NCBI GenBank assembly: GCA_963811285.1
Contig: CAWEQV010000014.1
Coordinates: forward strand, 92,879 to 156,878
Direction of reading: 5' to 3'
DNA from: an uncultured Chitinophagaceae bacterium
GTDB taxonomy: Bacteria; Bacteroidota; Bacteroidia; Chitinophagales; Chitinophagaceae
DNA length: 64,000 bases
This document shows, one piece after another, positions 897-56,246 of the stretch (position 1 is its first letter; each line of letters opens with the position of its first letter). The notes under the pieces were generated by a model. That model had not been told where the DNA came from, did not search any database, and saw only the letters and a list, made by a program, of their open reading frames with translations. Position numbers and translations under genes: made by a program.

Positions 897-1361
897 TTAC
901 TTATTCATCATACTCTTTCCACCCATCATTCCCTTTTGCTGCATCATATTCTGCATCATCTGCATTGATTTTGGATTTTGGGCCATCATATTCAACATCA
1001 TGCCCATCATGGCAGGGTTTTGCGCCATCATATTGTACATATTCTGAACTCTTGTACTGTCACCTCCTGTCATATTCATCCCCTGCATATTGCCATTCTG
1101 CATCATTTGTCCGTTTTGCATCATGTGCCCATTTTGCATCATGCTGCCGTTTTGCATCATCTGCATAGCTTGCGGATTACTCCTTATATGATCCATCATG
1201 TTAGTCATCAGTTGTGGATTATTGGAAATTTCAGTCATGATAGAGTCGCGCATGGTATTATCTTTCAATAATTCTGATGCAGAAGGAATGGACCGTTGAG
1301 CACAGGATGAGGCTGCGATTGCCAGGCCAATTACGATTAATATCGTTTTTAAATTTTTCAT
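897..1361 (-). CDS. Met/Gln/Asn-rich lipoprotein, putative copper-binding protein
   Basis: Lipobox AIAASSC at Cys20; about 36 of 154 residues are Met; NGxMMQ repeats; lies inside the copper ATPase cluster. Confidence 0.75.
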   Translation of the reverse strand: MKNLKTILIVIGLAIAASSCAQRSIPSASELLKDNTMRDSIMTEISNNPQLMTNMMDHIRSNPQAMQMMQNGSMMQNGHMMQNGQMMQNGNMQGMNMTGGDSTRVQNMYNMMAQNPAMMGMMLNMMAQNPKSMQMMQNMMQQKGMMGGKSMMNK

Positions 1362-25559: not shown

Positions 25560-26126
25560 TTGAATTTATTTGACTTTCTGCGCCAGCCATGGCCCTGGTA
25601 CGTTGCAGGCCCTCTTATCGGTTTAACCGTTCCGCTGCTTTTACTTGCCGGAAATAAAATGTTGGGTATCTCGAGTAGCCTGCGGCATATTTGCGCAGCT
25701 TGCTTTCCCGGCCAGATAGCTTTCCTCAAATACAGGTGGAAAGATCAATTGTGGAATTTGTTTTTTGCTGCCGGACTGTTGATTGGCGGATTTATCGGCG
25801 GTGTAATTTTAAAACCTGCCACGCCAATGCCTCTTTCAGACGCCACCAAAAACGCTTTAGGTTCGTATGGTATTACAGATGTGCATCGTCTTTTACCGGC
25901 AGAAATTTTTAGCTGGGCTCATTTGTTAACGTGGCAACATTTCTTGATTATTATTGGCGGAGGATTTTTGGTAGGCTTTGGAACGCGCTATGGCCATGGA
26001 TGCACAAGCGGCCATGGAATTTTTGGGCTGTCTACTTTCCAATGGCCTTCACTTATAGCTGTGATCTTATTTTTTGCCAGCGGCATTTTTACGACTCATT
26101 TTATTTTACCCTTACTTCTTAAATAA
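25560..26126 (+). CDS. YeeE/YedE (TsuA-like) sulfur-compound transporter, subunit 1
   Basis: [34 protein letters not shown]. Confidence 0.9.
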
Positions 26127-26542
26127 TGAAAAAGAAAAACTTTTTATTCCTTTTGTTGGGAATTATTTTCGGTACCACACTTATAAAAGCAGATGCTGTT
26201 TCATGGTTTCGGATGCAGGAAATGTTTCGTTTCCAGGGTTTTCAGATGTATGGAATTTTTATGACAGCGATTCCTACCGCAGCTATTTCTGTTTTTCTTA
26301 TTCGTAAATTCAATATTAAAACCTTGGACGGCGAGCCGGTTAAAATCATTGAAAAGAAATTTAATTGGGGAATTGTTTATGGTTCAATTTTGTTCGGAAT
26401 AGGTTGGGCTTTGACCGGCACTTGTCCCGGTCCGATTTATGTACAAATTGGTAGCGGCCTCACGATTGCAATTCTTACTCTCCTAAGCGCACTTGCCGGG
26501 ACATGGGTTTATAGTTATTTAAAACCGAAGCTTCCTCATTAG
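26126..26542 (+). CDS. YeeE/YedE family transporter, subunit 2
   Basis: FRMQEMFRFQ.F.MYG, FGIGWALTGTCPGP; overlaps the stop codon of subunit 1. Confidence 0.88.
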   Translation: MKKKNFLFLLLGIIFGTTLIKADAVSWFRMQEMFRFQGFQMYGIFMTAIPTAAISVFLIRKFNIKTLDGEPVKIIEKKFNWGIVYGSILFGIGWALTGTCPGPIYVQIGSGLTIAILTLLSALAGTWVYSYLKPKLPH

Positions 26543-28015: not shown

Positions 28016-29320
28016 TCAGACAATATTTTTATTTTTAATATCCGCTGAACCTGTTTTGATTGATTTCAAATCCTTATAAAAATCCGGGTAAGATTTTTTT
28101 ACTGCTTCTGATTGCTGAATCACTGTATTCCCTTTAGCCGCCAAAGCTGCAACAGCCGTTGCCATGGCAATCCGGTGATCATTGTGTGAAGAAACAGTCG
28201 CCCCTTTTACTTCTCTGCTTCCTTTTATATTCATCAGGTCGCCATTCAATTCAATCTCAACATTCATTTTTTTAAACTCATCTCTTAAAGCGATTGCCCT
28301 GTTGCTTTCTTTATGTAAAAGCCGGTTCACACCTTTGATAATGGTAGTTCCTTTGCAATAAGAAGCAAGCGCCACGAGCGGAGGAAACAAATCCGGGCAA
28401 TGGGTTGCATCGAATTCAAATGCGGATAATTTATTTTTCTTTACTGTAATTTCTTTTTTAGTGACCATAACATCTGCGCCACAATCGTACAACGCTTCCA
28501 TAATATTTTTATCGCCCTGGCATGAATTAAGATCAGCACCTGTAAGCGTGATGTGACCTGCAACAGCACCGGCAACCAGCAAAAAAGCAGCATTGCTCCA
28601 ATCTCCCTCCACTGTATATTTTATACTATGCGCCTGCAATGGCTCACGAGGGAAAATGTTGAAAACTTCGTAATTCTGATTTTCAATTTTAAAACCAAAA
28701 TGTTTTAAAACGGCAATAGTAAGATCAATATAAGGCCTGCTTGAAAGATCCTTTACAGTAATACTAACGGGACGGGTACATGCTTTTGCAAAAGCGAATA
28801 ATAACCCCGTCAAAAATTGAGAGCTTAAAGAACCATCCACTTTAATATTTTTAGGATGAAGAGGGCCACGTAAAGTAACTGGCAATTTTCCATCATTTGA
28901 GTTTACTTCCACATCAAGCAAAGGAAGGATTTCATCAAAAAAATTCATTGGCCTTTTTAAAATACTTCCTTCACCAGTAAAAATAATATCATAATTAAAC
29001 AGGCCGGCAATCGGTGCAAACATTCGCATTGATAAACCACTTTCTCCAACATTCAAAATCACATTTTTTTCAGGAAACTGTGAACGAAAAATAAAATCAT
29101 GGGAAGTGATAGCCAATTTATTGCTTGTCTTATTAATAGTGGCGCCCAATTTTGCTATTATATCGAGAGCCGCTTTTTCATCGTTGCTGTTGCCAAAATT
29201 ATCAATAACCGTTGTGCCTGGCGTAATCAGCGCAGCAGCGCAAGCGCGCTGCATTGAACTTTTTGATGGCGGCACTTTTATTTTTCCTGATATGGAAGAG
29301 GGCGTAATTGTTATATCCAC
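28016..29320 (-). CDS. aroA: EPSP synthase
   Basis: PPSKS, GESGLSMR, SSQFLTGLL, KESNR, NDHRIAM. Confidence 0.95.
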   Translation of the reverse strand: MDITITPSSISGKIKVPPSKSSMQRACAAALITPGTTVIDNFGNSNDEKAALDIIAKLGATINKTSNKLAITSHDFIFRSQFPEKNVILNVGESGLSMRMFAPIAGLFNYDIIFTGEGSILKRPMNFFDEILPLLDVEVNSNDGKLPVTLRGPLHPKNIKVDGSLSSQFLTGLLFAFAKACTRPVSITVKDLSSRPYIDLTIAVLKHFGFKIENQNYEVFNIFPREPLQAHSIKYTVEGDWSNAAFLLVAGAVAGHITLTGADLNSCQGDKNIMEALYDCGADVMVTKKEITVKKNKLSAFEFDATHCPDLFPPLVALASYCKGTTIIKGVNRLLHKESNRAIALRDEFKKMNVEIELNGDLMNIKGSREVKGATVSSHNDHRIAMATAVAALAAKGNTVIQQSEAVKKSYPDFYKDLKSIKTGSADIKNKNIV

Positions 29321-29332
29321 TTAATGCTTAAA

Positions 29333-30379
29333 TTATGAATTGAATGAAAAAAATATCTTGTGCAATTCCCGAATTGGAATTTTCTGTATACAGGCTTTAC
29401 CGATTTTTTCCAGCACAATAAAATGCATGTCTTTGCCGGATTTTTTTTTATCGTGCAATAAAATGTCCCACGTTTTTTGTTTGTCAAATTCGAAAGAAAC
29501 GGGAAGATGATATTTAGAAAGTAATTGCCTAACCTTTTCCGTACCGGTTTTGGGAAAACCAGTTATTTGTTCTGAAATAATGCAAGCGGCCACCATACCG
29601 ATACTTATCGCACTTCCATGTGGAAGTTTCCCTGTATTTTCAATTGCATGGCCGATTGTATGGCCAAAATTGAGCAACCTTCTCTCCCCTGTTTCACGCT
29701 CATCATTTACTACAACATTGTATTTTAATTCCACGTTCTGCTGAATTAATTTTCCAATATTCTCCAAGGAAGAATGAAAATAATCGAAGGGTTTTTCCTG
29801 TAGTAACCTGAACATGTTTTCATCCCTGATGCAGGCATGTTTTATTATTTCTGCAAAACCATTGATCCACTCCGCCTCAGGAAGTGTTTCTAAAAAAGAA
29901 TAATCATAAAATAAAAATTCAGGCTGATTGATAACGCCGACCAGGTTTTTATAAACTCCAACATCAACGCCGTTCTTCCCCCCGATACTTGCATCTACCA
30001 TAGCCAAAATACTTGTCGGTACAAAACCGAACCTCACGCCACGCATATAAATTGAAGCCGCATAACCTGTAATATCAGTAACAACACCACCTCCAACACC
30101 GATGAGAAATGTTTGCCTGTCTGCATTCAATTCAATCAACCCCTTAATTATTTTATCAACCGCTTCTTGATTTTTGTGTTGCTCTCCTGCTTTTATTACT
30201 ATTGTTTTCCAGCCTGAAAACTTTTCGGATTGCTTTGCAAAAACATTTTCGTCCGTAATCAGAATCGAATTTTCTTTATCAACATGCTCCTGCAATTGGG
30301 AAAAATCAGCGTTAAAATATACGCTTACCGCCTTCTCTGAAAAGACATAATTTTTGTCCACCATTTCTTTATTCTTCAT
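29333..30379 (-). CDS. aroB: 3-dehydroquinate synthase
   Basis: GGGVVTDITG, VDASIGGKNG, LNFGHTIGHA, HDKK. Confidence 0.95.
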   Translation of the reverse strand: MKNKEMVDKNYVFSEKAVSVYFNADFSQLQEHVDKENSILITDENVFAKQSEKFSGWKTIVIKAGEQHKNQEAVDKIIKGLIELNADRQTFLIGVGGGVVTDITGYAASIYMRGVRFGFVPTSILAMVDASIGGKNGVDVGVYKNLVGVINQPEFLFYDYSFLETLPEAEWINGFAEIIKHACIRDENMFRLLQEKPFDYFHSSLENIGKLIQQNVELKYNVVVNDERETGERRLLNFGHTIGHAIENTGKLPHGSAISIGMVAACIISEQITGFPKTGTEKVRQLLSKYHLPVSFEFDKQKTWDILLHDKKKSGKDMHFIVLEKIGKACIQKIPIRELHKIFFSFNS

Positions 30380-31460
30380 TCATGATTTTATTTTGATGGT
30401 TGATACTTTCCATGTGAACCGCATCAAAATATTTGGTAATAAAATCTTTACTGAGATCCAGTTTTTCACCCTTTACAAAAGCCTTGGCCAAAATTTCATT
30501 CCAGCGATTGGTTTGTAAGATCGTGATATTGTTTTCTCTTTTATATTCACCGATTTTATTGGAAATCTTCATGCGTTGACCGAGGAGCGCCATTAGTTCA
30601 TCATCTACATGGTTGATCTGTTCACGCAATTTCGCAAGCGCCGTTACAAATTCTTTTTCATTTGAGTTTTCATGACGCCATTTCAGGTTACCGAGCATTT
30701 CAGATAATTTTTCCGGGGTAATTTGTTGCTTTGAGTCACTCCATGCCTTATCAGGATCAATATGAGTTTCGATCATTAAACCATCAAAATCGAGGTCGAT
30801 ACTTTTTTGAGCTACATCCTGCAGGCCGGTTCTGTTACCGCAAATGTGAGAAGGATCACAAATGATAAGCATATCAGGAAATCTTCTTTTCATTTCTATT
30901 GGCAGATGCCACATCGGCGCGTTCCGGAATTCGGTATTTCCGTAATTGGAAAAACCGCGATGGATCATTCCGATATCTTTCACTCCAACTTTTTGCAAAC
31001 GCTCAATGCCTCCGCTCCAAAGTTCCAGGTCAGGATTGATAGGATTTTTAATTAAGACAGGAATGTCAACGCCGCGCAAAGCATCACAAACTTCCTGCAC
31101 GCTAAAGGGATTCACAGTAGTGCGTGCGCCAACCCAAACCAGGTCAACATCAAATTGCAATGCCATCTCTACATGTTTTGCAGTAGCGACTTCTACGGCA
31201 ATAGGAAGGCCGGAAATTTTCTTTGCCTGTGCAAGCCACGGCAAACCTTTTACACCAATGCCTTCAAACATACCGGGCTTGGTCCTTGGTTTCCAAATTC
31301 CGGCGCGAAGCAAATCAACCTTTCCTGTTTTTGCAAGCCTTGTAGCGGTTTCCACTACCTGTTCTTCTGTTTCGGCGCTGCATGGGCCGCTGATGATCAA
31401 TGGACGCTTATTCCATTTTTCTTTTATTTCCTCTTTCATAGTTTTTGTTTCAGTTTGCAT
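30369..31460 (-). CDS. DAHP synthase (class I-beta) fused to a C-terminal AroQ chorismate mutase
   Basis: SGPCSAE, RAGIWKPRT, GARTT, ICDPSH, IETH; C-terminal LREQINHVDDELMALLGQR. Confidence 0.92.
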   Translation of the reverse strand: MQTETKTMKEEIKEKWNKRPLIISGPCSAETEEQVVETATRLAKTGKVDLLRAGIWKPRTKPGMFEGIGVKGLPWLAQAKKISGLPIAVEVATAKHVEMALQFDVDLVWVGARTTVNPFSVQEVCDALRGVDIPVLIKNPINPDLELWSGGIERLQKVGVKDIGMIHRGFSNYGNTEFRNAPMWHLPIEMKRRFPDMLIICDPSHICGNRTGLQDVAQKSIDLDFDGLMIETHIDPDKAWSDSKQQITPEKLSEMLGNLKWRHENSNEKEFVTALAKLREQINHVDDELMALLGQRMKISNKIGEYKRENNITILQTNRWNEILAKAFVKGEKLDLSKDFITKYFDAVHMESINHQNKIMNEE

Positions 31461-31507
31461 TGTAAAATTAATTTTTAAAATTTATAGTTATTTGTTCGTT
31501 TACTGTC

Positions 31508-32357
31508 TTACTTAATAATTCTTGAAATTTTATTGGCGTTTTCCATCAGTTCTTTCAGGTATTCATAATTTTCCTTTTCAAGACAGCTTTTAAATTTTCG
31601 TAATTGCGAAATGTGTTCATTCAAAACATCTAAAACATTTTCCCTGTTCTGCATAAAAATCGGCGCCCACATAGAAGGATTACTTTTTGCCAGACGAACG
31701 GTGCTTTCAAAACCACCGCCTGCCAGTTCAAAAATCGCGTCTTCTTCTTTTTCTTTTTCCAAAACCGTATTTGCTAATGCAAAAGAAGTGATGTGGGAAA
31801 TATGACTTACATACGCGGCATGAATATCATGGTTTTCCGCATCCATATACGTAAGATGCATTCCCAATTCTTTGTAAATCTTTTCAACCGTTTTAACTGC
31901 TTCTTCATCACTCTTTTCTTTTTCACAAATGACACATGATCTGCCGCTGAAAGCTTCTCTCACGGCAGCTTCCGGGCCGCTGTATTCTGTTCCCCACATC
32001 GGATGCGTTGCTACAAACCTTTTTCTTTTCGGATGATTTTCCAAGTGCTTTACACAAGGCATATTTCGTAGAACCAGCGTCTGCAACGATTTGTTTGTCG
32101 GTAACCAAATCCATAATTTTTTCCATAACAGGAATGGTTACGTCAACAGGAATCGCGACATAAATGAAATCACTTTTTTTCACCGCTTCTTCCAGGGGCA
32201 ACGCTTCATCAATAATTCCAAGCTCTTTCGCTTTATCTAAACTTGCCTGTGTTCTGCTGACACCAATTATATTTTTTGCGAAGCCTTTTTCTTTTAAAGC
32301 GAGCGCAAAAGAGCCACTAATTAAACCAACACCTACTATCGTTACGTTTTCAAACAT
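31508..32357 (-). CDS. tyrA: Prephenate dehydrogenase; frameshift near 32045
   Basis: GVGLISGS Rossmann motif, DAGSTK, ATHPMWGTE, HDIHAAYVSHISH. Confidence 0.92.
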
Positions 32358-32365
32358 ATCATTTA

Positions 32366-33550
32366 TTAATTCTGCGTCTTTTTAATTCTGTCAATCGCTT
32401 CATCCAGTTTTTCTTCCGGCGTGCACAAACTAACGCGAACATAATTATTTCCGGCATTTCCAAAAATTCCGCCTGGTGTGATAAATACGTTTGCTTCTTC
32501 TAATACTTTATCACTCAATTCATATCCATCTTTATAATTTGCAGGAATAGAAGCCCAGACAAAAAGGCCAGCCTGGTTTTTATTGTAGGAACAATTTAAA
32601 AGATCAAGCAGATTAAATACTTTCTCACGTCTTTTTTTATAGACTGCATTTACAGAATCATACCAATCCTGGTCAAGTTCCAAAGCCGTTGCGGCAGCGA
32701 GTTGCAGCGGCAAAAACATTCCACTGTCCATATTGCTTTTGAAGCGCAGCACTTCTGCAATTCTTTCTTTTGCACCCGAAAGCATTCCCACGCGCCAGCC
32801 AGCCATGTTATGGCTTTTGCTGAACGAATTCAATTCAATTACAACTTCCATCGCTCCTTCTACACTTAACAAACTCATTGGATGATCATTGAGAATGAAG
32901 CTGTATGGGTTATCGTGAACAACTAATATTTGATGCTTTTTTGCAAAAGAAATTAGTTCCTTAAACATTTCGTTTGTGGGTAACTGTCCGGTTGGCATTT
33001 GCGGATAATTCACAAACATCAGTTTCACTTTCTGCAAATCCAGTTTTTCCAATTCATTAAAATCAGGACACCAGTTATTTTCTTCTTTAAGCGTGTAAGC
33101 ATAAACGTTAGCGCCTGCAATTGTCGCGGCACTTTTATAAGTCGGATAACCGGGATTCGGAATTAAAACCATATCACCGGGATTGATATACGTCATGCAA
33201 ATGTGCATGATACCTTCCTTGCTCCCAATCAAAGGCAAAATTTCTGTATCAGGATTGAGATCAACGTTATACCATTTTTTATACCATTTTGAAATTGCGT
33301 TTCTCAGGACAGGGCTTCCTTTATAGCTCTGATAACCATGTTGATTCGGTTTTTCAGCTTCTTCTGCCAATGTCTTAATCACATCCGGATGAGGCGGAAG
33401 ATCAGGGCTGCCGATTCCGAGGTTTATCACATTTTTCCCTTCCTTATTCATTTGATCAATTTGCCTCAGCTTGGTCGAAAAATAATATTCTTCAATACCT
33501 GAAAGGCGATCAGCTACTTTGCCCATTTTATTGTTCAGTGTATCGTTCAT
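32366..33550 (-). CDS. Class I/II PLP aminotransferase, probably the aromatic-branch transaminase
   Basis: GIGSPD, GSKEG, DNPY, SFSKSHNMAGWRVG. Confidence 0.9.
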   Translation of the reverse strand: MNDTLNNKMGKVADRLSGIEEYYFSTKLRQIDQMNKEGKNVINLGIGSPDLPPHPDVIKTLAEEAEKPNQHGYQSYKGSPVLRNAISKWYKKWYNVDLNPDTEILPLIGSKEGIMHICMTYINPGDMVLIPNPGYPTYKSAATIAGANVYAYTLKEENNWCPDFNELEKLDLQKVKLMFVNYPQMPTGQLPTNEMFKELISFAKKHQILVVHDNPYSFILNDHPMSLLSVEGAMEVVIELNSFSKSHNMAGWRVGMLSGAKERIAEVLRFKSNMDSGMFLPLQLAAATALELDQDWYDSVNAVYKKRREKVFNLLDLLNCSYNKNQAGLFVWASIPANYKDGYELSDKVLEEANVFITPGGIFGNAGNNYVRVSLCTPEEKLDEAIDRIKKTQN

Positions 33551-33569
33551 CGCATTTTTTATTTAAAAA

Positions 33570-34403
33570 TTAACCCGCATTTTTCCCGTTTTTATAAACA
33601 CCATATACTTTAACATTAGCGGTTAAAGGCGCTATACTTTTTAATACCTCATTCAGTTGTTCAAGATGAGTGAATTCACAATCCACATGAAAGGAATAGC
33701 GCCAGTCGCTGCCGGGAATCGGCATTGATTGAAGCTTACTTAAATTTACATCCGCTTCTGAAATTTTTGTCAGCACCTTCGCAAGGCTTCCTTTTGAATG
33801 ATCTGTCTGAAAGATCAAAGAAGCTTTATTGGCATCATTGATTTCTTTTACCGAAGTTTCGTTTTCCAAAACCCAAAAGCGTGTATAATTATTTTTTTGT
33901 GTGTGAATGTTTGGCGCTATAATTTCCAACCCGAAAAGTTCAGCAGCCAGGTCGCCTGCAATCGCGGCAATGTGTTTACTCCTGTGTTGGTGTACATGCT
34001 GAGCGCTAAGCGCAGTATCTTCCGTTTCAATTAACTTCCAATTGTACTTTTCTAAAAAATCAGAACATTGAAGCAATGCCATTGGATGAGAATGAACTTC
34101 GCGAATATCTTCAAGCGTAATGCCGGGGTTAACCATCAAATGCTGGTTTACCTGCAGGTAAATTTCTCCTACAATTTTCAATTTACTTTTTTGCAATAGA
34201 TTGTAATTGGGCAAAATGCTTCCGGCAATTGAATTTTCGATGGCCATAAGGCCACCATCGCTGCTGGTTTTGTCATCGGCAATCTTTATTACTTCACGGA
34301 AAGTGGAGCAACAAATCACTTCCACTTCGTTTCCAAAAAACTGGCGGGCAGCAGCCTGGTGAAAGCTCCCTTCAAAACCCTGTATGGCTATTTTCTTTTG
34401 CAT
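33570..34403 (-). CDS. pheA: Prephenate dehydratase with ACT domain
   Basis: AIENSIAG, SHPMALLQC, NYTRF, NLSKLQSMP. Confidence 0.94.
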   Translation of the reverse strand: MQKKIAIQGFEGSFHQAAARQFFGNEVEVICCSTFREVIKIADDKTSSDGGLMAIENSIAGSILPNYNLLQKSKLKIVGEIYLQVNQHLMVNPGITLEDIREVHSHPMALLQCSDFLEKYNWKLIETEDTALSAQHVHQHRSKHIAAIAGDLAAELFGLEIIAPNIHTQKNNYTRFWVLENETSVKEINDANKASLIFQTDHSKGSLAKVLTKISEADVNLSKLQSMPIPGSDWRYSFHVDCEFTHLEQLNEVLKSIAPLTANVKVYGVYKNGKNAG

Positions 34404-34438
34404 AAAACAAAAATCCCGGCGATTTGTGCCGGGATTTT
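34404..34438 (-). terminator. Attenuator terminator hairpin immediately before the pheA start codon
   Basis: Minus strand AAAATCCCGGC-ACAAATC-GCCGGGATTTT then TGTTTT-ATG. Confidence 0.85.
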
Positions 34439-34463
34439 CTATTGTTAATTTGTTATTTCCGTT

Positions 34464-34541
34464 TTAACAAGCCGATCCCGGACTATTTCTAAAATAGTAG
34501 CTAAAATAAAAGAAGCCGGTATTTGCTTTTCTGATTATCAT
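34464..34541 (-). CDS. Phe/Tyr-rich attenuator leader peptide (25 aa)
   Basis: MIIRKANTGFFYFSYYFRNSPGSAC*; 7 of 8 consecutive codons encode Phe or Tyr; lies between the promoter and the terminator. Confidence 0.85.
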   Translation of the reverse strand: MIIRKANTGFFYFSYYFRNSPGSAC

Positions 34542-34548
34542 TGCATCG

Positions 34549-34556
34549 CAAATGTA
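34549..34556 (-). promoter_or_regulatory. Bacteroidota sigma -7 element of the aromatic operon
   Basis: TACATTTG (TAnnTTTG) ends 7 nt before the leader ATG. Confidence 0.7.
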
Positions 34557-34749
34557 AGTGCTAAATTGAAATCAACAAATTAATTTTTTATTTTTTACCA
34601 AAAAATTTCAAAACAAATGACGCTTTTGGCGAAATTATTCTAATGTATTAAGAACAATTGCAAATACGGTGAAATAAAAATCGGAAGAATTTGTTGTTTT
34701 ACTAACTATTAAAATTTCACATCGAACCTTGGTGTTTCGTAGTCACAAC

Positions 34750-34790
34750 AAAAAACCTCCATGCACCGCTATTAACGGTGGCACAGAGGT
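34750..34790 (-). terminator. Intrinsic terminator after the rubrerythrin gene
   Basis: Minus strand ACCTC...GCCACCG-TTAATAG-CGGTGCA...GAGGT followed by a T run. Confidence 0.55.
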
Positions 34791-34837
34791 AAACACCAAA
34801 CCTTACAGTAAGTATGCCTTGTTTGCAGTTTTGTAGT

Positions 34838-35581
34838 TTATAGGGTTGTTATCTTTATGAACCTGTCTGATTTAGTCATTGAAATTCCGCAACGAGCCGG
34901 AGCTGTGGTTTGATAAGTGTTGCCACAGGTTGAACATACATAGTAAACCGACGGCAGATTATTCGCAGTATTATTCTGCAAAGCTGCCAGCGCTGTTTGG
35001 TACATCACCTGGTGCTTTTTTTCTGTTTTGTAAGCATAATTCAGGCTTATCATTGCCAGCTGATCACCGGCCACGTTAGCTACTTTGAGAAATTCAGGAT
35101 ACATGGTGGTTGCCTCATAAGTTTCTCCTTTAATGGCGTCTTCAAGATTTTCCTTAGTTGATAACACAGTGTATTCAGGTGTTATCGCCGGAACAGAAAC
35201 GCCTGATTCCTGTAAAACTGCTTTGTGATTATTTGCATGAACATTTTCTGCTGTGGAAGCTGCTTTAAAAAGCAAAGCGATTTGATGAAAGCCTTCCTTT
35301 TCTGCTTTTTGAGCGTAGGCTGCATATTTGGCACTCGCGGTTGTTTCACCTTTAAAGGCTGCCTGCAAATTCTCAATGGTTTTGGATTTTGCATCTGCAT
35401 TTGTCATGCTCACCGTCTTTGCGATGGGATTTGTTTCTTCGTTTTCCTGTTGATTAGCAATGGCAGTATTTATTGCTTTTGGTGATTTAAGTGAAGTGTC
35501 GGCATCATTGCTTTTGCATGAAACCATAAATAAGCTGCCTGTTGCTAACAATAGTGCCGGAATAATTAATGTCTTTTTCAT
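34838..35581 (-). CDS. Lipoprotein rubrerythrin-like di-iron protein with a variant rubredoxin-like C-terminus
   Basis: Lipobox LFMVSC; GETTASAKY, ENVHA, GETYEATTMY, EKKH di-iron motifs; C-terminal CSTC-x11-CGIS. Confidence 0.85.
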   Translation of the reverse strand: MKKTLIIPALLLATGSLFMVSCKSNDADTSLKSPKAINTAIANQQENEETNPIAKTVSMTNADAKSKTIENLQAAFKGETTASAKYAAYAQKAEKEGFHQIALLFKAASTAENVHANNHKAVLQESGVSVPAITPEYTVLSTKENLEDAIKGETYEATTMYPEFLKVANVAGDQLAMISLNYAYKTEKKHQVMYQTALAALQNNTANNLPSVYYVCSTCGNTYQTTAPARCGISMTKSDRFIKITTL

Positions 35582-50489: not shown

Positions 50490-53400
50490 TTATTTTATCC
50501 GCACTATCTTACCTGTAACTTTCTTATTACCAATCATGAAGGTATAAATTAACGTACCTCTGAATGCCGAAGGCACATTGTAGCCAATGATTTGTTTGCC
50601 CGCTGGCATGTATCCCTGGTAAACATTCGTCAACCTAACACCCATCACATTGTACAGATCCAGGCTCGCCTTCCCTGACACTTTTGTCTTAATGGTAAAG
50701 TTTACGTTGTTATCTACGGGGTTTGGATTAGTGGTAACTGTTACGTCATCACTAACTGTTTCTTTCACCAAACTGGTAGTAGTGGCAATTGGTTTTAAGA
50801 GCGTACTACTGCATGATTGCGGTGTTGCAAAATATCCAAGACTGTAACGTCCCTCATCAAAAGAATTGTTTATTACATCCACCGCATTACTGATATCACT
50901 GTAGCTTACACCGTTCGGCAAGGTTCCTCCAAGGGCGTCACTGGCCATCTGCAAGAGTTCAGCAACTGTCTTTCCATCCAGCAGCGCCATCAGAGTATGG
51001 TTGCTGGTAATCTTCATGCTGCTCATTGAACCTCCATTTGCGCAGGTGGCTGCCTGACCATCGCATGCTGACCCTAATACGTTCATTGTTGTCAGGTATC
51101 CGTCTTTCAGTTCAAAAGTAGAAAGACCATTGCCAGGAATATTCATATTCAACGCCAGGGTTATCGTTTGTGAAAGAAGAACGTTATTGATCCTTCCTTT
51201 CTTCAACGGTGGGTAGTTTCCTGAAGGATTTAAGTTATAATTACCGCCTAATTTGGTTGCTTTTCCACCACCCGGCAAAATATTCTGTAGCGAAGAAGCC
51301 TGTGCATAAGTTACGGTGAAGGAAGCATGTGAGGTACCCAAATGCAATTGTCCGGCATTATTACCAGGAATTCCATCCATGTTGTTCAACGACAACTGCA
51401 TCACCTGAAGTGCAGACAATGAACCGTTATTCGGAGTACAGCCTTTACCTGTTCCATGGTAAAATCCCTGGGTATAGGTGAAGATAATTCCTCCACAAGG
51501 AGGTGCCGGGTCAACGGTAACCGAAGCATTATCCGATACACATCCTGCTGCGTTTTGCGCGGTTATTGTATGATTACCTGTAGTTGTTGTACTGTAGCCT
51601 GCTGAAGGATAGTCTGCGTAACCTTTTCCGTCGAAGCTGAACTTAAGACCTGTTGTGGGCGAGATTACTGTGATTGTTGCCGTTGCATCTGAACAGGTTG
51701 GTTGGGTTATTGACAATGTTGGTGCAACTTGTACCTGCTCTGTAACCGTAACAGTTGATGTTGCATCTTCTGTACATGGTGTTGTCGCTGCAACGGTATA
51801 AGTATAAGTGCCTGCTCCTGCCAAAGCTGGTGACCAGGTTCCTCCCGCATCATGGGTTCCGATAACTGCATATAACTGCGCTTCTGTTACTGTACTTCCT
51901 GTGCATATTGATAACGCACCACTTGTGCCCGCATTTGGTTTTGCCGCCTCTGTTACCGTAACAGTTGATGTTGCATCTTCTGTACATGGTGCTGTCGCTG
52001 CAACGGTATAAGTATAAGTGCCTGCTCCTGCCAAAGCTGGTGACCAGGTTCCTCCCGCATCATGGGTTCCGATAACTGCATATAACTGCGCTTCTGTTAC
52101 TGTACTTCCTGTGCATATTGATAACGCACCACTTGTGCCCGCATTTGGTTTTGCCGCCTCTGTTACCGTAACAGTTGATGTTGCATCTTCTGTACATGGT
52201 GCTGTCGCTGCAACGGTATAAGTATAAGTGCCTGCTCCTGCCAAAGCTGGTGACCAGGTTCCTCCCGCATCATGGGTTCCGATAACTGCATATAACTGCG
52301 CTTCTGTTACTGTACTTCCTGTGCATATTGATAACGCACCACTTGTGCCCGCATTTGGTTTTGCCGCCTCTGTTACCGTAACAGTTGATGTTGCATCTTC
52401 TGTACATGGTGCTGTCGCTGCAACGGTATAAGTATAAGTGCCTGCTCCTGCCAAAGCTGGTGACCAGGTTCCTCCCGCATCATGGGTTCCGATAACTGCA
52501 TATAACTGCGCTTCTGTTACTGTACTTCCTGTGCATATTGATAACGCACCACTTGTGCCCGCATTTGGTTTTGCCGCCTCTGTTACCGTAACAGTTGATG
52601 TTGCATCTTCTGTACATGGTGCTGTCGCTGCAACGGTATAAGTATAAGTGCCTGCTCCTGCCAAAGCTGGTGACCAGGTTCCTCCCGCATCATGGGTTCC
52701 GATAACTGCATATAACTGCGCTTCTGTTACTGTACTTCCTGTGCATATTGATAACGCACCACTTGTGCCCGCATTTGGTTTTGCCGCCTCTGTTACCGTA
52801 ACAGTTGATGTTGCATCTTCTGTACATGGTGCTGTCGCTGCAACGGTATAAGTATAAGTGCCTGCTCCTGCCAAAGCTGGTGACCAGGTTCCTCCCGCAT
52901 CATGGGTTCCGATAACTGCATATAACTGCGCTTCTGTTACTGTACTTCCTGTGCATATTGATAACGCACCACTTGTGCCCGCATTTGGTTTTGCCGCCTC
53001 TGTTACCGTAACAGTTGATGTTGCATCTTCTGTACATGGTGCTGTCGCTGCAACGGTATAAGTATAAGTGCCTGCTCCTGCCAAAGCTGGTGACCAGGTT
53101 CCTCCCGCATCATGGGTTCCGATAACTGCATATAACTGCGCTTCTGTTACTGTACTTCCTGTGCATATTGATAACGCACCACTTGTGCCCGCATTTGGTT
53201 TTGCCGCCTCTGTTACCGTAACAGTTGATGTTGCATCTTCTGTACATGGTGCTGTCGCTGCAACGGTATAAGTATAAGTGCCTGCTCCTGCCAAAGCTGG
53301 TGACCAGGTTCCTCCCGCATCATGGGTTCCGATAACTGCATATAACTGCGCTTCTGTTACTGTACTTCCTGTGCATATTGATAACGCACCACTTGTGCCC

Positions 53401-56246
53401 GCATTTGGTTTTGCCGCCTCTGTTACCGTAACAGTTGATGTTGCATCTTCTGTACATGGTGCTGTCGCTGCAACGGTATAAGTATAAGTGCCTGCTCCTG
53501 CCAAAGCTGGTGACCAGGTTCCTCCCGCATCATGGGTTCCGATAACTGCATATAACTGCGCTTCTGTTACTGTACTTCCTGTGCATATTGATAACGCACC
53601 ACTTGTGCCCGCATTTGGTTTTGCCGCCTCTGTTACCGTAACAGTTGATGTTGCATCTTCTGTACATGGTGCTGTCGCTGCAACGGTATAAGTATAAGTG
53701 CCTGCTCCTGCCAAAGCTGGTGACCAGGTTCCTCCCGCATCATGGGTTCCGATAACTGCATATAACTGCGCTTCTGTTACTGTACTTCCTGTGCATATTG
53801 ATAACGCACCACTTGTGCCCGCATTTGGTTTTGCCGCCTCTGTTACCGTAACAGTTGATGTTGCATCTTCTGTACATGGTGCTGTCGCTGCAACGGTATA
53901 AGTATAAGTGCCTGCTCCTGCCAAAGCTGGTGACCAGGTTCCTCCCGCATCATGGGTTCCGATAACTGCATATAACTGCGCTTCTGTTACTGTACTTCCT
54001 GTGCATATTGATAACGCACCACTTGTGCCCGCATTTGGTTTTGCCGCCTCTGTTACCGTAACAGTTGATGTTGCATCTTCTGTACATGGTGCTGTCGCTG
54101 CAACGGTATAAGTATAAGTGCCTGCTCCTGCCAAAGCTGGTGACCAGGTTCCTCCCGCATCATGGGTTCCGATAACTGCATATAACTGCGCTTCTGTTAC
54201 TGTACTTCCTGTGCATATTGATAACGCACCACTTGTGCCCGCATTTGGTTTTGCCGCCTCTGTTACCGTAACAGTTGATGTTGCATCTTCTGTACATGGT
54301 GCTGTCGCTGCAACGGTATAAGTATAAGTGCCTGCTCCTGCCAAAGCTGGTGACCAGGTTCCTCCCGCATCATGGGTTCCGATAACTGCATATAACTGCG
54401 CTTCTGTTACTGTACTTCCTGTGCATATTGATAACGCACCACTTGTGCCCGCATTTGGTTTTGCCGCCTCTGTTACCGTAACAGTTGATGTTGCATCTTC
54501 TGTACATGGTGCTGTCGCTGCAACGGTATAAGTATAAGTGCCTGCTCCTGCCAAAGCTGGTGACCAGGTTCCTCCCGCATCATGGGTTCCGATAACTGCA
54601 TATAACTGCGCTTCTGTTACTGTACTTCCTGTGCATATTGATAACGCACCACTTGTGCCCGCATTTGGTTTTGCCGCCTCTGTTACCGTAACAGTTGATG
54701 TTGCATCTTCTGTACATGGTGCTGTCGCTGCAACGGTATAAGTATAAGTGCCTGCTCCTGCCAAAGCTGGTGACCAGGTTCCTCCCGCATCATGGGTTCC
54801 GATAACTGCATATAACTGCGCTTCTGTTACTGTACTTCCTGTGCATATTGATAACGCACCACTTGTGCCCGCATTTGGTTTTGCCGCCTCTGTTACCGTA
54901 ACAGTTGATGTTGCATCTTCTGTACATGGTGCTGTCGCTGCAACGGTATAAGTATAAGTGCCTGCTCCTGCCAAAGCTGGTGACCAGGTTCCTCCCGCAT
55001 CATGGGTTCCGATAACTGCATATAACTGCGCTTCTGTTACTGTACTTCCTGTGCATATTGATAACGCACCACTTGTGCCCGCATTTGGTTTTGCCGCCTC
55101 TGTTACCGTAACAGTTGATGTTGCTGTATTCGAGCATGGCGCTGCAGCTGTAACAGTATACGTATACACTCCAGTAACAGGTCCACTCCATGTTCCGCCT
55201 GTAGAAGGCGTACCTCCCAATGCTGCAAATAACTGTGCTTCCGTTGGTGTTGTTCCTGTACATACGCTTAGTGTCCCGTCTGTTCCTGCATCGAGTGGTG
55301 GACAACATGAAATAACAGTAATATCTTTAGATATAGTACTGGTTACGGCCGGAGAAGCCCCATCTGTTACTGTTAATGTAACTGTATACACACCTGGACC
55401 AGCACCAGCTTGGGCAAAATCAAAAGATGGATTTGAGCCGGTCATCGTACCCACTTGTAAACTTGTGTTCTTATTTACAATTGTCCAACTGAATGATGAA
55501 TATGGCAGAGTTCCTCCGGTTGTTCCGTCTGTTGCATCAAGCGCATCAAATGAATAAGTTTGTGCAGGTTTAGCTATAGCACATGAACCGGTTGCGGTAA
55601 AATCAGCGCTCAGCGGAGTAACAATCACGATCGGTGGGCCTCCGGGAGTTAATGGTAATTGCTCACAATGGGGACTTGCAGCACAAATAATTGGGGAATT
55701 AGGAGCGGGGCATACATTGCTGCCAGCGCTGTTTCCCCATCCAATGAATAGATCTTGTAACTCAAGTTTGGTTCCACAAGTATAAGTTATCGGAAAATCA
55801 CTTATATACTTTACAAAAGTCCCGCTGTTCGTTTCAGCAGGGTCGCAATAAGTAAATGTTTGCGAAAAAACACCATCTACCAAAATGTTACCAGCCAAAC
55901 TGATTCCATAACGGGTAGTTGCATTTTGGGTGAAGGTTATCTTTAAATAACCGGTGATAGTTGTTGAGCCACTGCAGGTGGTTGGCAAGTCTATGAATTG
56001 CGGTTTGCCACTACCAGGCGTGTAATCAGGGTTTAATTGTACCAGCACAACAGACTCAACGTGATCATCATTAGCCACACATCCCGTGCAAGGCTGAAAC
56101 GGAGTTTGGCCATACAAGGTACTTGTCTGAATAAAAAACGTAAATAGAAACGAAACGACTGTAGCAATAAAGGAGAACTTAAATTTATGGATTTGACTGT
56201 TCAATAAGTTTCTTCTTCGGTTAGGTAAATGTGTAAGTGGTAACAT
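50490..56246 (-). CDS. 1918-aa secreted repeat protein (putative adhesin) with a T9SS type A C-terminal sorting domain
   Basis: Signal peptide ending YG-Q; Cys-rich N-terminal domain; tandem Thr-rich 70-aa repeats; CTD TNPNPVDNNVNF...LYNVMG...GKIVRIK. Confidence 0.9.
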   Translation of the reverse strand: MLPLTHLPNRRRNLLNSQIHKFKFSFIATVVSFLFTFFIQTSTLYGQTPFQPCTGCVANDDHVESVVLVQLNPDYTPGSGKPQFIDLPTTCSGSTTITGYLKITFTQNATTRYGISLAGNILVDGVFSQTFTYCDPAETNSGTFVKYISDFPITYTCGTKLELQDLFIGWGNSAGSNVCPAPNSPIICAASPHCEQLPLTPGGPPIVIVTPLSADFTATGSCAIAKPAQTYSFDALDATDGTTGGTLPYSSFSWTIVNKNTSLQVGTMTGSNPSFDFAQAGAGPGVYTVTLTVTDGASPAVTSTISKDITVISCCPPLDAGTDGTLSVCTGTTPTEAQLFAALGGTPSTGGTWSGPVTGVYTYTVTAAAPCSNTATSTVTVTEAAKPNAGTSGALSICTGSTVTEAQLYAVIGTHDAGGTWSPALAGAGTYTYTVAATAPCTEDATSTVTVTEAAKPNAGTSGALSICTGSTVTEAQLYAVIGTHDAGGTWSPALAGAGTYTYTVAATAPCTEDATSTVTVTEAAKPNAGTSGALSICTGSTVTEAQLYAVIGTHDAGGTWSPALAGAGTYTYTVAATAPCTEDATSTVTVTEAAKPNAGTSGALSICTGSTVTEAQLYAVIGTHDAGGTWSPALAGAGTYTYTVAATAPCTEDATSTVTVTEAAKPNAGTSGALSICTGSTVTEAQLYAVIGTHDAGGTWSPALAGAGTYTYTVAATAPCTEDATSTVTVTEAAKPNAGTSGALSICTGSTVTEAQLYAVIGTHDAGGTWSPALAGAGTYTYTVAATAPCTEDATSTVTVTEAAKPNAGTSGALSICTGSTVTEAQLYAVIGTHDAGGTWSPALAGAGTYTYTVAATAPCTEDATSTVTVTEAAKPNAGTSGALSICTGSTVTEAQLYAVIGTHDAGGTWSPALAGAGTYTYTVAATAPCTEDATSTVTVTEAAKPNAGTSGALSICTGSTVTEAQLYAVIGTHDAGGTWSPALAGAGTYTYTVAATAPCTEDATSTVTVTEAAKPNAGTSGALSICTGSTVTEAQLYAVIGTHDAGGTWSPALAGAGTYTYTVAATAPCTEDATSTVTVTEAAKPNAGTSGALSICTGSTVTEAQLYAVIGTHDAGGTWSPALAGAGTYTYTVAATAPCTEDATSTVTVTEAAKPNAGTSGALSICTGSTVTEAQLYAVIGTHDAGGTWSPALAGAGTYTYTVAATAPCTEDATSTVTVTEAAKPNAGTSGALSICTGSTVTEAQLYAVIGTHDAGGTWSPALAGAGTYTYTVAATAPCTEDATSTVTVTEAAKPNAGTSGALSICTGSTVTEAQLYAVIGTHDAGGTWSPALAGAGTYTYTVAATAPCTEDATSTVTVTEAAKPNAGTSGALSICTGSTVTEAQLYAVIGTHDAGGTWSPALAGAGTYTYTVAATAPCTEDATSTVTVTEAAKPNAGTSGALSICTGSTVTEAQLYAVIGTHDAGGTWSPALAGAGTYTYTVAATTPCTEDATSTVTVTEQVQVAPTLSITQPTCSDATATITVISPTTGLKFSFDGKGYADYPSAGYSTTTTGNHTITAQNAAGCVSDNASVTVDPAPPCGGIIFTYTQGFYHGTGKGCTPNNGSLSALQVMQLSLNNMDGIPGNNAGQLHLGTSHASFTVTYAQASSLQNILPGGGKATKLGGNYNLNPSGNYPPLKKGRINNVLLSQTITLALNMNIPGNGLSTFELKDGYLTTMNVLGSACDGQAATCANGGSMSSMKITSNHTLMALLDGKTVAELLQMASDALGGTLPNGVSYSDISNAVDVINNSFDEGRYSLGYFATPQSCSSTLLKPIATTTSLVKETVSDDVTVTTNPNPVDNNVNFTIKTKVSGKASLDLYNVMGVRLTNVYQGYMPAGKQIIGYNVPSAFRGTLIYTFMIGNKKVTGKIVRIK
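51745..55124. repeat. Tandem array of 16 x 210-bp units (70 aa each)
   Basis: Antisense ORFs recur every 210 bp from 51808 to 54958; copies look nucleotide-identical except a GTT/GCT change in the 3'-most coding copy. Confidence 0.95.

Follow-up and report, generated by a model that had tools for sequence, protein, structure and literature searches.

A conserved leader peptide rich in phenylalanine and tyrosine codons probably controls an aromatic amino-acid operon of Chitinophagaceae by transcription attenuation

What is the role of a 25-codon open reading frame on the minus strand that has a Bacteroidota-type promoter ahead of it and a strong intrinsic terminator behind it? The question is raised by a locus within a 64-kb stretch of DNA, referred to as the window, from a soil Chitinophagaceae bacterium in which a six-gene aromatic amino-acid operon follows this leader (Table 1). 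We consider it probable (about 0.85) that the element at the head of the operon is a transcription attenuator of the trpL/pheL type, operated by the ribosome that translates a leader peptide. The core of this interpretation, a stalling leader with phenylalanine (F) and tyrosine (Y) control codons, an antiterminator and an aromatic operon, had been put forward in a previous sequence-only reading and is supported here by conservation, covariation and predicted folds.

Table 1. Features of the leader region and the operon (positions within the window)
Feature	Position	Strand	Remarks
Bacteroidota sigma-A type promoter	34549..34579	-	-33 TTTG 34579-34576, 19-nt spacer, -7 box TACATTTG 34556-34549
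Leader ORF	34464..34541	-	25 codons + stop, MIIRKANTGFFYFSYYFRNSPGSAC*; ATG at 34541, TAA 34466-34464
Candidate region 1, CCGGC, codons 8-9	34515..34519	-	minimum-energy fold of full-length RNA pairs it with region 2 (G-CCGG)
Control codons 10-17, F F Y F S Y Y F	34491..34514	-	UUC UUU UAU UUU AGC UAC UAU UUU
Small A/U hairpin ACUAUUU-UAG-AAAUAGU over last control codons	34482..34498	-	weak, not established
Region 2, antiterminator 5' arm CCGGGAU	34475..34481	-	9 nt past last control codon, 8 nt before stop codon
Region 3, terminator 5' arm GAAAAUCCCGGC	34428..34439	-	AUCCCGG 34435-34429 common to antiterminator
Region 4, terminator 3' arm GCCGGGAUUUUU (34420-34409) and U-tract	34404..34420	-	U-tract adjoins pheA AUG
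pheA, monofunctional prephenate dehydratase with ACT domain	33570..34403	-	NF008865, E = 2e-61
Class-I PLP aminotransferase	32366..33550	-	starts 19 nt past pheA
tyrA, prephenate dehydrogenase	31508..32357	-	two ORFs here; extra G near 32042-32045
DAHP synthase (type I-beta) with C-terminal AroQ chorismate mutase	30369..31460	-	residues 17-263 and 273-358
aroB, 3-dehydroquinate synthase	29333..30379	-	TIGR01357, 333 bits, above cut-off; 11-nt overlap with preceding gene
aroA, EPSP synthase, last gene of the cluster	28016..29320	-	TIGR01356, 335 bits, above cut-off

The claimed leader ORF with its FFYFSYYF stretch is indeed present on the minus strand, where these residues correspond to codons 10-17 (34514-34491), the proposed site of ribosome stalling when Phe-tRNA or Tyr-tRNA is scarce. 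No other stretch in the six frames of the whole window contains at least seven F or Y in eight residues. Related leaders share this property: both codon types occur in all 79 leaders of the genome loci, with two to seven F and one to five Y codons per run (median 4 F and 3 Y), and TTT, TTC, TAT and TAC account for 576 of the 621 codons of the runs. Variation within the run is synonymous or from F to Y; positions of F and Y shift among clades while the numbers of each are kept, and the rare interrupting residue is mostly serine. The ATG is almost invariant, and 78 of 79 genome loci have 18-31 open codons in a frame in which the F/Y run is always read, from which we infer that the leader is translated.

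Transcription is predicted to start at about 34544, which leaves a 5' UTR of approximately 3 nt, within a predicted range of 0-6 nt. The Bacteroidota -7 box covers -12 to -5 (PMC9723704). Of the 79 loci examined, 69 bear such a box, and in 63 of these an exact TAnnTTTG stands 4-10 nt upstream of the leader ATG. The leader is transcribed in environmental RNA: RNA contigs of related strains from four metatranscriptomes cover it, none of them reaching upstream of about 34533 at the leader start, and one crosses the terminator into pheA (34074-34530).

The identities proposed earlier for the downstream genes were confirmed by NCBIfam profile matches. Homologs of pheA are named prephenate dehydratase, and a chorismate mutase (CM) domain is absent from PheA; the class-I enzyme encoded next is likely an aromatic or prephenate aminotransferase (AT). 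In the window, tyrA is broken by a +1 frameshift due to one extra G, which is absent from contigs of related strains; at locus L001, whose PheA is 99% identical, tyrA is intact (282 amino acids). Gaps between the operon genes range from -11 to 47 nt, and the order pheA-AT-tyrA-DAHPS/CM(-aroB) is conserved in relatives. When the operon region was scanned for TTG-N17-21-TAnnTTTG upstream of an ORF, the leader promoter was the only match, with no second canonical promoter before any operon gene. All six genes thus appear to depend on this single promoter, and weak internal promoters may exist within the operon.

The terminator, GAAAATCCCGGC-ACAAATC-GCCGGGATTTTT (34439-34409), is followed by GTTTT, and it abuts pheA as had been claimed, with the U-tract ending at 34404 and the ATG at 34403. 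Its stem of 12 pairs, six of them G-C, has an energy of -18.7 kcal/mol (z = -5.4) and represents the top terminator-like site between 27.5 and 35.5 kb. CCGGGAT (34481-34475) within the leader has a second copy at the core of GCCGGGAT (34420-34413) in the terminator 3' arm; ATCCCGG (34435-34429) is its complement. The CCGGGAT arm of the leader scored a p_shuffle of 0.0, and the leader as a whole folds better than all of 200 shuffled versions (z = -3.8). The antiterminator which the sequence-only reading had derived from these two motifs is borne out by their complementarity, by covariation with the terminator and by folding under ribosome masks.

Conservation of the F/Y codons and covariation upstream of pheA, which the earlier reading had named among the checks to be made, are both present in the Chitinophagaceae loci. 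An F/Y leader plus terminator was found at 78 of 79 genome loci with PheA identities of 64-99%, at 68 of 80 metagenome loci of Chitinophagaceae-like relatives, and at 63 of the 66 metagenome loci having 350 nt of upstream sequence. Across relatives, 94.8% of the terminator pairing is retained with six compensatory pairs, and none of 500 shuffles was as good. The antiterminator helix is paired in 90.2% of the cells of alignment A1 with compensatory changes at four pairs, and between zero and seven of 500 shuffles equalled the real value on five summary measures. A stretch that can pair with the terminator 5' arm follows the last F/Y codon at a distance of 5-13 nt; in 68 of the 79 loci it outperforms no fewer than 98% of shuffles, and it changes in concert with the terminator (AGGGAA/TTCCCT in L035, CGGAGG/CCTCCG in L057, GGGACT/AGTCCC in L080, and CAGG/CCTGG in L065, L070 and L076). 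The CCGGG nucleotides are kept although their reading differs by clade (S-P-G, K-P-G or S-R-V); thus, the constraint acts on the RNA. Judged by these comparisons, the element is real and conserved at about 150 related loci.

Based on this arrangement we propose the following model. Transcription would start at the sigma-A promoter a few nucleotides upstream of the leader AUG, and a ribosome would read the 25-codon leader while RNA polymerase advances. When charged tRNA-Phe or tRNA-Tyr runs short, the ribosome would stall within FFYFSYYF and leave CCGGGAU, 9 nt downstream, free to pair with AUCCCGG once the latter is transcribed. With its 5' arm occupied the terminator would not form, and polymerase would go on to transcribe pheA and the five genes behind it. 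When both tRNAs are charged, the ribosome would reach the stop codon 8 nt beyond the arm and cover it, whereupon the hairpin of the terminator, at -18 kcal/mol and with the U-tract behind it, would form and transcription would stop just before the pheA AUG.

Folding under ribosome masks supports the model in that the predicted behaviour matches what it requires. At all 79 loci the nascent RNA had the 2:3 helix in its minimum-energy fold, whichever F/Y codon was occupied by a ribosome; in the window this structure (-13.4 kcal/mol) forms with the ribosome stalled at codons 10-16. A ribosome at the stop codon blocks the helix in 52 of the 79 loci, the window's own included, and a static ribosome at that position leaves arm 2 uncovered in the other 27. 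Nascent RNA that is not translated favours the antiterminator in 66 of 79 loci already, and the default state may therefore differ from that of trpL. Two further helices fared less well. The CTATTT-TAG-AAATAG "pause hairpin" of the sequence-only reading exists on paper, at about -2.3 kcal/mol, and is not better than shuffles (p about 0.1; z = -0.07 for the local fold over the last control codons). The window's 1:2 helix was paired in 72.8% of cells among relatives with covariation not beyond shuffles, and a classical 1:2 anti-antiterminator or pause helix is thus not supported.

Does the attenuator respond to both amino acids? We lean towards stalling at Phe as well as Tyr codons, solely from the co-occurrence of F and Y codons in every leader and from the operon content. 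A less probable but serious alternative is that the same attenuator senses phenylalanine only and that the Tyr codons are passive, UAU and UAC being retained to break U-runs, which might cause slippage or premature termination, or to pair in local structure. The last Tyr codons are in fact part of the weak local hairpin, and the published Flavobacterium element is annotated as "phenylalanine biosynthesis". Moreover, expression controlled by the Phe-Tyr-Phe leader aroR of Corynebacterium glutamicum, the single mixed leader put to experiment, moved with Phe limitation and not with Tyr availability, according to the summary in PMC11802643; the Tyr codons here therefore need not be sensors. Against this stand the retention of at least one Tyr codon in every leader, the shifting of F and Y positions among clades at constant numbers with serine as the usual interrupter, and the fact that the operon, via tyrA, also makes tyrosine. 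In E. coli pheL, the Phe runs are interrupted by Ala and Thr and not by Tyr.

It is unlikely, though compatible with attenuation as an addition to it, that translation of pheA is regulated by the terminator hairpin as well as, or in place of, transcription. In Bacteroidota, which lack Shine-Dalgarno sequences, initiation requires a start region free of structure; it would be prevented by the hairpin and permitted by the antiterminator. Between the hairpin and the pheA AUG, which the U-tract adjoins, there are 5 nt, and most of the 79 genome loci have their pheA start 4-13 nt past the terminator. In about 20 of them, however, the terminator is 46-135 nt away from the called start, which indicates that close contact between terminator and AUG is not conserved, and a G+C-rich stem of 12 bp that leads into a U-tract is what an intrinsic terminator normally looks like.

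We regard it as very improbable that the short ORF is untranslated and that the leader RNA, as a riboswitch or when bound by a protein as in the TRAP or T-box systems, selects between terminator and antiterminator. The element has no Rfam family, which speaks for this alternative; the Rfam search did not yield a T-box or any other match either, and Phe_leader (RF01859) scored 18.4 bits versus a gathering score of 55. The RNAalifold consensus of the relatives contains one helix only, the terminator, and no conserved structured aptamer, and the near-invariant ATG, the 18-31-codon frame and the restriction of changes in the run to synonymous or F-to-Y replacements argue against an untranslated ORF. 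Finally, a chance ORF beside a constitutive terminator or insulator separating the rubrerythrin gene from pheA is close to refuted by the comparative data: the genome is A+T-rich and T-rich codons are hence common, but the upstream rubrerythrin gene carries its own terminator, from which the leader is separated by the promoter, the window has no second F/Y run of this kind, and about 150 loci show conservation and covariation of the ORF, arm 2 and terminator.

The favoured attenuator is of a known kind, reported for Flavobacterium psychrophilum (2021) and Corynebacterium aroR and listed as putative for Bacteroides thetaiotaomicron (2005), and the description of a mixed Phe/Tyr leader over such an operon as unusual was overstated, given the F. 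psychrophilum and B. thetaiotaomicron cases. The Phe/Tyr/Trp-rich pheA leader of F. psychrophilum (THC0290_N_0195; Guerin et al. 2021, ISME Commun, PMC9723704, Table S7, SI D9) is a homologous element of the same geometry from another Bacteroidota family. There, a short ORF with tandem aromatic codons, MNTNNTFYSNNSFYFYWNIGRDCYMVI, precedes pheA and an aminotransferase gene, and the 5' arm of the terminator, ACAATCCC, has its complement in an arm, GGGATTGT, that lies 10 nt downstream of the final aromatic codon, with 12 nt left to the stop codon; this leader likewise has no Rfam family. Its transcription start was mapped, read-through depends on conditions, the element is kept in other Flavobacteriaceae genera, and the operon is expressed most in nutrient-poor medium (PMC9723704). 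It differs by a 5' UTR of 20 nt, as against the near-leaderless start predicted here, by a single Trp codon, by F/Y codons that are split into two clusters, and by low sequence similarity beyond the ATCCC/GGGAT core. Furthermore, the regulated mRNA comprises pheA-aspC3, with a separate mapped promoter before the next gene, encoding DAHP synthase (PMC9723704), whereas the Chitinophagaceae locus has six genes without a second canonical promoter.

In B. thetaiotaomicron, a putative attenuator taken from Merino's attenuator database is listed upstream of pheA, hisHb, aroA(I-beta)-aroQ and tyrA, in this order (Song et al. 2005, PMC1173090, Table 7). This is the same phylum and the same set of prephenate dehydratase, aminotransferase, DAHPS-CM and tyrA behind a predicted terminator/antiterminator, with the differences that tyrA is last and that aroB and aroA are not listed; the table entry describes neither a leader peptide nor a sensed signal. 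The aroR leader of C. glutamicum (Neshat et al. 2014, as summarised in PMC11802643) is another mixed Phe/Tyr leader (F-Y-F), located upstream of aroF, and stalling on it controls a DAHP synthase operon. It belongs to another phylum, is unrelated in sequence, has three aromatic codons compared with seven here, and, within the scope of that summary, responded to Phe and not to Tyr; the operon described here includes both pheA and tyrA.

With enterobacterial pheL-pheA (RF01859) and trpL the element shares a leader ORF containing tandem codons for the end-product amino acid, and with pheL-pheA a terminator just upstream of pheA and an antiterminator that uses the terminator 5' arm. It is not a sequence or structure homolog of pheL, as reflected by its Rfam score, and, in contrast to pheL and trpL, lacks a Shine-Dalgarno sequence and a supported 1:2 helix. 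What may be new is the absence of a robust anti-antiterminator together with a conserved, near-leaderless leader ORF. While pheL of E. coli carries Phe codons only and regulates pheA alone, the mixed Phe and Tyr codons of the Chitinophagaceae leader would govern the common steps of the shikimate pathway along with both branches.

Our analysis indicates that the element ahead of pheA is a real, strongly conserved leader-peptide transcription attenuator, a reading to which we assign a probability of about 0.85 to 0.9. It displays the hallmarks of the trpL/pheL/hisL class, namely a Phe/Tyr-rich ORF preceding a Phe/Tyr operon, an intrinsic terminator, and a mutually exclusive antiterminator. The control run of the leader comprises seven Phe or Tyr codons within eight, and FFYFSYYF is the only stretch of eight residues with at least seven Phe or Tyr in all six frames of the 64-kb window. 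The folding energy of the whole leader is better than that of all 200 shuffles (z = -3.8). Rereading of the minus strand, which for the leader anatomy covered positions 34200-34900, reproduced each coordinate of the sequence-only reading, and the set of six genes which it had placed behind the leader agrees with the NCBIfam assignments listed in the table.

Features of the leader, the aromatic operon and the upstream neighbour
Feature	Position	Strand	Source
Bacteroidota-type promoter	TTTG 34579-34576, 19-nt spacer, -7 box TACATTTG 34556-34549	minus	sequence
Leader ORF, 25 codons, MIIRKANTGFFYFSYYFRNSPGSAC	34464-34541 (ATG at 34541, TAA at 34466-34464)	minus	ORF reading
Arm 2 heptamer CCGGGAT	34481-34475	minus	sequence
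Terminator hairpin GAAAATCCCGGC-ACAAATC-GCCGGGATTTTT	34439-34409, then GTTTT, pheA ATG at 34403	minus	terminator scan
Monofunctional prephenate dehydratase (pheA)	34403-33570	minus	NCBIfam
Class-I aminotransferase	33550-32366	minus	NCBIfam
Prephenate dehydrogenase (tyrA)	32357-31508	minus	NCBIfam
DAHP synthase with C-terminal chorismate mutase	31460-30369	minus	NCBIfam
aroB	30379-29333	minus	NCBIfam
aroA	29320-28016	minus	NCBIfam
Rubrerythrin-like gene, upstream neighbour	35581-34838	minus	annotation

The leader is widespread among relatives. A genome scan with PheA yielded 80 loci (64-99% identity), 79 of which contain the pheA start. In 78 of these, an ORF that starts with ATG, comprises 18-31 codons and contains a dense Phe/Tyr run, followed by a hairpin and a T-tract, is located at most 400 nt upstream; in the exception, L060, just 92 nt of upstream sequence are present. 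Leader peptides of relatives are exemplified by MKQTIANTFFYFYFYFYFKNSSRVVFAKA, MTNKSNNTWFYFYFYFNSRPGSFC and MNTTKAFTFFTFFFYYFSKG. Among the nearest PheA proteins and loci, all of which stem from metagenome-assembled genomes, the labels are Chitinophagaceae, Ginsengibacter, Hanamia and similar. A second scan, of metagenomes, added 80 further loci which belong to the same broad group because all of them are 59-81% identical to the PheA of the window; the leader is present in 68 of the 80, and in 63 of those 66 whose upstream sequence extends to 350 nt. The order pheA-aminotransferase-tyrA-DAHP synthase/chorismate mutase(-aroB) is conserved wherever the contig extends far enough.

The 79 leaders analyzed in detail (78 genome loci and the window) all mix Phe codons (two to seven) with Tyr codons (one to five), the medians being four and three, respectively, and TTT, TTC, TAT and TAC make up 576 of the 621 codons within the runs. 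The leader ATG and open frame are conserved, and variation within the run is synonymous or from Phe to Tyr. A Trp codon lies inside or beside the run in 10 of the 79 leaders. As a single codon directly before or in the run it occurs in several clades, namely in the genome loci L032, L044-L046, L050-L053, L055 and L067 and in many of the metagenome loci L081-L160 (e.g., NTWFYFYFYF and YRWFYFYYFF), and the Flavobacterium leader likewise has one (FYFYW). Through such a codon, Trp may serve as a further input to an operon in which the common shikimate steps are included.

The terminator hairpin, whose stem has 6 G-C pairs among its 12, ranks first in a scan of 27.5-35.5 kb and reaches -18.7 kcal/mol when folded alone (z = -5.4). 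In the antiterminator of the window, CCGGGAU (arm 2), which starts 9 nt past the Phe/Tyr run and ends 8 nt ahead of the stop codon, is paired with AUCCCGG of the terminator 5' arm. In each locus, the terminator 5' arm was matched against the sequence that separates it from the Phe/Tyr run, and the best helix without gaps was taken. The arm 2 so found in the 79 loci is 5-9 nt long, lies 5-13 nt (usually 7-10 nt) after the last control codon, and is better than at least 98% of shuffles in 68 of them. Clade-specific changes in the terminator are matched by changes in arm 2, as documented by the co-varying pairs (arm 2/terminator 5' arm) AGGGAA/TTCCCT in L035, CGGAGG/CCTCCG in L057, GGGACT/AGTCCC in L080, AGACCGGG/CCCGGTCT in L042, and CAGG/CCTGG in L065, L070 and L076. 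The nucleotides CCGGG are retained while being read as Ser-Pro-Gly, Lys-Pro-Gly or Ser-Arg-Val depending on the clade, which identifies the RNA, and not the tail of the peptide, as what is constrained.

In the alignment of the 79 leaders (A1), 94.8% of cells in the terminator are paired, with compensatory changes at six pairs; none of 500 shuffles was as good, and every slid control was clearly worse. The helix between arm 2 and the terminator 5' arm (2:3 helix) has 90.2% of cells paired and four compensatory pairs, and by five summary measures 0 to 7 of 500 shuffles were as good. RNAalifold returned a single consensus for A1, which is the terminator. The comparison of pheA upstream regions that the sequence-only reading had proposed as a check, across Chitinophagaceae and Flavobacteriaceae, came out in its favour for Chitinophagaceae-like relatives, both for the conservation of Phe/Tyr codons (78/79 and 68/80 loci) and for covariation of the terminator and the 2:3 helix.

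To model translation of the leader we used ViennaRNA and allowed no pairing within a ribosome footprint, which reached from 15 nt upstream of the A-site codon to 10 nt downstream of it. When the A site is placed on codons 10-16, nascent RNA of the window extending through the terminator 5' arm is predicted to adopt the 2:3 structure, at -13.4 kcal/mol with an inner hairpin counted in. Moving the ribosome to the stop codon abolishes this structure altogether, whereas free RNA of full length folds into the terminator. Across the 79 loci, a stalled ribosome permits the 2:3 helix in all 79, the terminator forms in free full-length RNA in 73, and a ribosome at the stop codon blocks the 2:3 helix in 52, the window among them. 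In the remaining loci arm 2 sits 16-26 nt ahead of the stop codon, a distance at which only a moving ribosome would cover it. Based on these masked folds of stalled and completed translation, the switch would act as the trpL model demands. Untranslated nascent RNA favours the 2:3 helix in 66 of the 79 loci, and in these models the default without translation may be read-through, unlike in trpL. Translation of the leader, with read-through rising when cognate charged tRNA is scarce, is putative; it is suggested by the conserved ATG and frame, by the Phe/Tyr-preserving variation, and by RNA contigs of related strains.

Two further structures fared less well. The helix that classically serves as pause or anti-antiterminator structure (1:2 helix), keeping ribosome and polymerase in step and imposing termination when the leader is untranslated, is part of the minimum-energy fold of the full-length window leader (CCGGCU/AG-CCGG plus UUUUA/UAGAA). 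Since only 72.8% of its cells are paired in A1 and its covariation is no better than that of shuffles, it was dropped as a conserved feature. The sequence-only reading had moreover proposed a small pause hairpin over the control codons (ACUAUUU-UAG-AAAUAGU, 34498-34482), and this is not established: its energy is -2.3 kcal/mol (p ~0.1 against shuffles of its 3' half), and the local fold around it has a z of -0.07. Of 47 distinct sequences, 15 have a comparably weak hairpin that is better than 95% of shuffles, a fraction which is above chance yet not convincing.

Given the universal mix of Phe and Tyr codons and the presence of both pheA and tyrA in the operon, we lean towards the view that both amino acids are sensed. 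The one experimental precedent, aroR, argues for caution in this respect: this Phe-Tyr-Phe leader, which precedes the DAHP synthase operon of Corynebacterium glutamicum, showed a response to Phe and none to Tyr (PMC11802643). Leaders ahead of pheA operons devoid of tyrA, sought as a contrast for dual sensing, were not found in a representative search and the metagenome scan, which together gave only loci with the same operon and 59-81% identity to the PheA of the window. In two metagenome contigs (L139 and L146), neither a Phe/Tyr leader ahead of pheA nor an aminotransferase or tyrA match behind it was found; in a third locus, L121, the operon is present and the leader was not detected. The leader may travel with the operon rather than with pheA itself.

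Control by a T-box, a riboswitch or a protein is disfavoured by the lack of a conserved aptamer-like structure and of an Rfam match. At gathering thresholds, no Rfam family was matched anywhere in the window. When the leader was searched permissively, all matches were below threshold and driven by the terminator; Phe_leader (RF01859) scored 18.4 bits (E = 1) against a gathering threshold of 55 bits, and the element was therefore not assigned to that family. By shared architecture and context rather than by a model score, we class it as the Bacteroidota pheA aromatic leader. The pheA leader of Flavobacterium psychrophilum has a mapped transcription start site and is read through under some conditions (Guerin et al., PMC9723704). 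According to the same study, the operon is expressed highest in nutrient-poor medium and the leader is conserved in other Flavobacteriaceae genera. When we measured the published leader, GGGATTGT was found to follow the last aromatic codon at a distance of 10 nt and to precede the stop codon by 12 nt; it is complementary to the terminator arm ACAATCCC. Compared with the window and the 79 loci, the published leader has the same architecture as the window: a GGGAT-type arm follows the run at about 10 nt, and the terminator 5' arm is of the ATCCC type. A putative attenuator was also listed ahead of pheA > hisHb > aroA-aroQ > tyrA in Bacteroides thetaiotaomicron (Song et al. 2005, PMC1173090, Table 7).

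That the leader hairpin serves as terminator of the upstream rubrerythrin-like gene was ruled out because this gene has one of its own (34750-34790, minus strand), a hairpin of -22.1 kcal/mol followed by a U-tract (UUUUUUGUUG). On the operon strand, TTG-N17-21-TAnnTTTG is found in full ahead of a gene only at the leader promoter. With this sole full promoter match and a self-terminated upstream gene, the leader opens a new transcription unit. The gaps between the six operon genes range from -11 to 47 nt, and all six are likely to be driven from the leader promoter. Unusually for a rubrerythrin, the rubrerythrin-like protein has a signal or lipoprotein-like segment at its N terminus.

In four metatranscriptomes of root or soil, the leader is covered by assembled RNA contigs of related strains, and one contig (34074-34530) runs from the leader through the terminator into pheA. 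These contigs show that the leader is transcribed and read through in related strains under unspecified conditions. None of these contigs, whose ends are inexact, reaches upstream of about 34533; the contig ends are consistent with the predicted promoter and fit a transcription start at the leader.

The sigma-A -7 box TAnnTTTG of F. psychrophilum spans -12 to -5 (PMC9723704). In 69 of the 79 loci an exact TAnnTTTG lies no more than 70 nt from the leader ATG, and its last G is separated from the ATG by 7 nt in 34 loci, by 8 nt in 11, and by 4-10 nt in 63. From this spacing we predict a 5' UTR of 0-6 nt (3 nt in the window, where transcription would start near 34544), and the leader ORF would be read from a leaderless or near-leaderless mRNA. 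The UTR of the F. psychrophilum leader differs in this respect, being 20 nt long. Such mRNAs are rare in Bacteroidota: they account for 5.5% of the mRNAs of F. psychrophilum (PMC9723704), and UTRs shorter than 10 nt are found in 3.7% of those of B. thetaiotaomicron.

The tyrA gene of the window is split into two ORFs by a +1 frameshift. The extra G is located near 32042-32045 (minus strand, within 32030-32050) in CTTGGAAAA, where the close relative L001 (PheA 99% identical) reads GTT-GAAAA and has an intact tyrA of 282 aa; contigs of related strains are also without the extra base. The frameshift reflects either an indel in the assembly or a loss of Tyr synthesis that is specific to the strain. 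A second frameshifted conserved gene within 6 kb encodes an OmpR-type response regulator whose receiver domain (37720-37334) and Trans_reg_C domain (37461-37045, minus strand) are on overlapping ORFs, adjoining a histidine kinase gene (37045-35672). Two frameshifted conserved genes within 6 kb suggest indel errors in the assembly.

Elsewhere in the window, a 154-aa ORF (897-1361, minus strand) is very rich in Met over one stretch (MMGMMLNMMAQNPKSMQMMQNMMQQKGMMGGKSMMNK), matches no Pfam family, and resembles Met-rich metal-binding proteins. A 1918-aa ORF (50490-56246, minus strand) with weak, repeated PKD-like, BNR/Asp-box, K1-lyase 'Rider' and DUF6174 matches probably encodes a large secreted or surface protein. 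Two neighbouring small membrane proteins (25560-26542, plus strand), each corresponding to one half of the Sulf_transp (YeeE/YedE-like) family, represent the split form of a sulphur-compound transporter.

Possibly new traits of the attenuator are its conserved near-leaderless leader ORF, the unsupported anti-antiterminator, and the breadth of the regulated pathway. It is a tentative and rather doubtful proposition that the near-leaderless leader, the missing anti-antiterminator and the multi-tRNA run jointly define a distinct variant of attenuation for a phylum devoid of Shine-Dalgarno sequences. If so, translation of the leader ORF would take place on a conserved mRNA that is essentially leaderless, its 5' UTR measuring 0-6 nt, and untranslated RNA, lacking an anti-antiterminator, would default to read-through. 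Termination would then require a ribosome actively passing over arm 2. The mixed Phe/Tyr run, together with Trp in some clades, would integrate the charging of two to three aromatic tRNAs, and a single switch would serve the common shikimate steps as well as the Phe and Tyr branches.

With a textbook mechanism and a published homologue, our finding refines rather than changes what is known. It raises the questions of whether one leader can signal that two amino acids are short at once, or three in leaders with a Trp codon, and of how ribosome and polymerase are coupled on a nearly leaderless leader mRNA without a Shine-Dalgarno sequence. As Rfam holds no family for the element, the approximately 150 aligned, covarying examples would suffice as the seed of an RNA-family model. 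For a large, mostly uncultured family of soil bacteria, our study provides a well-supported annotation of a previously unannotated regulatory element and its small ORF.
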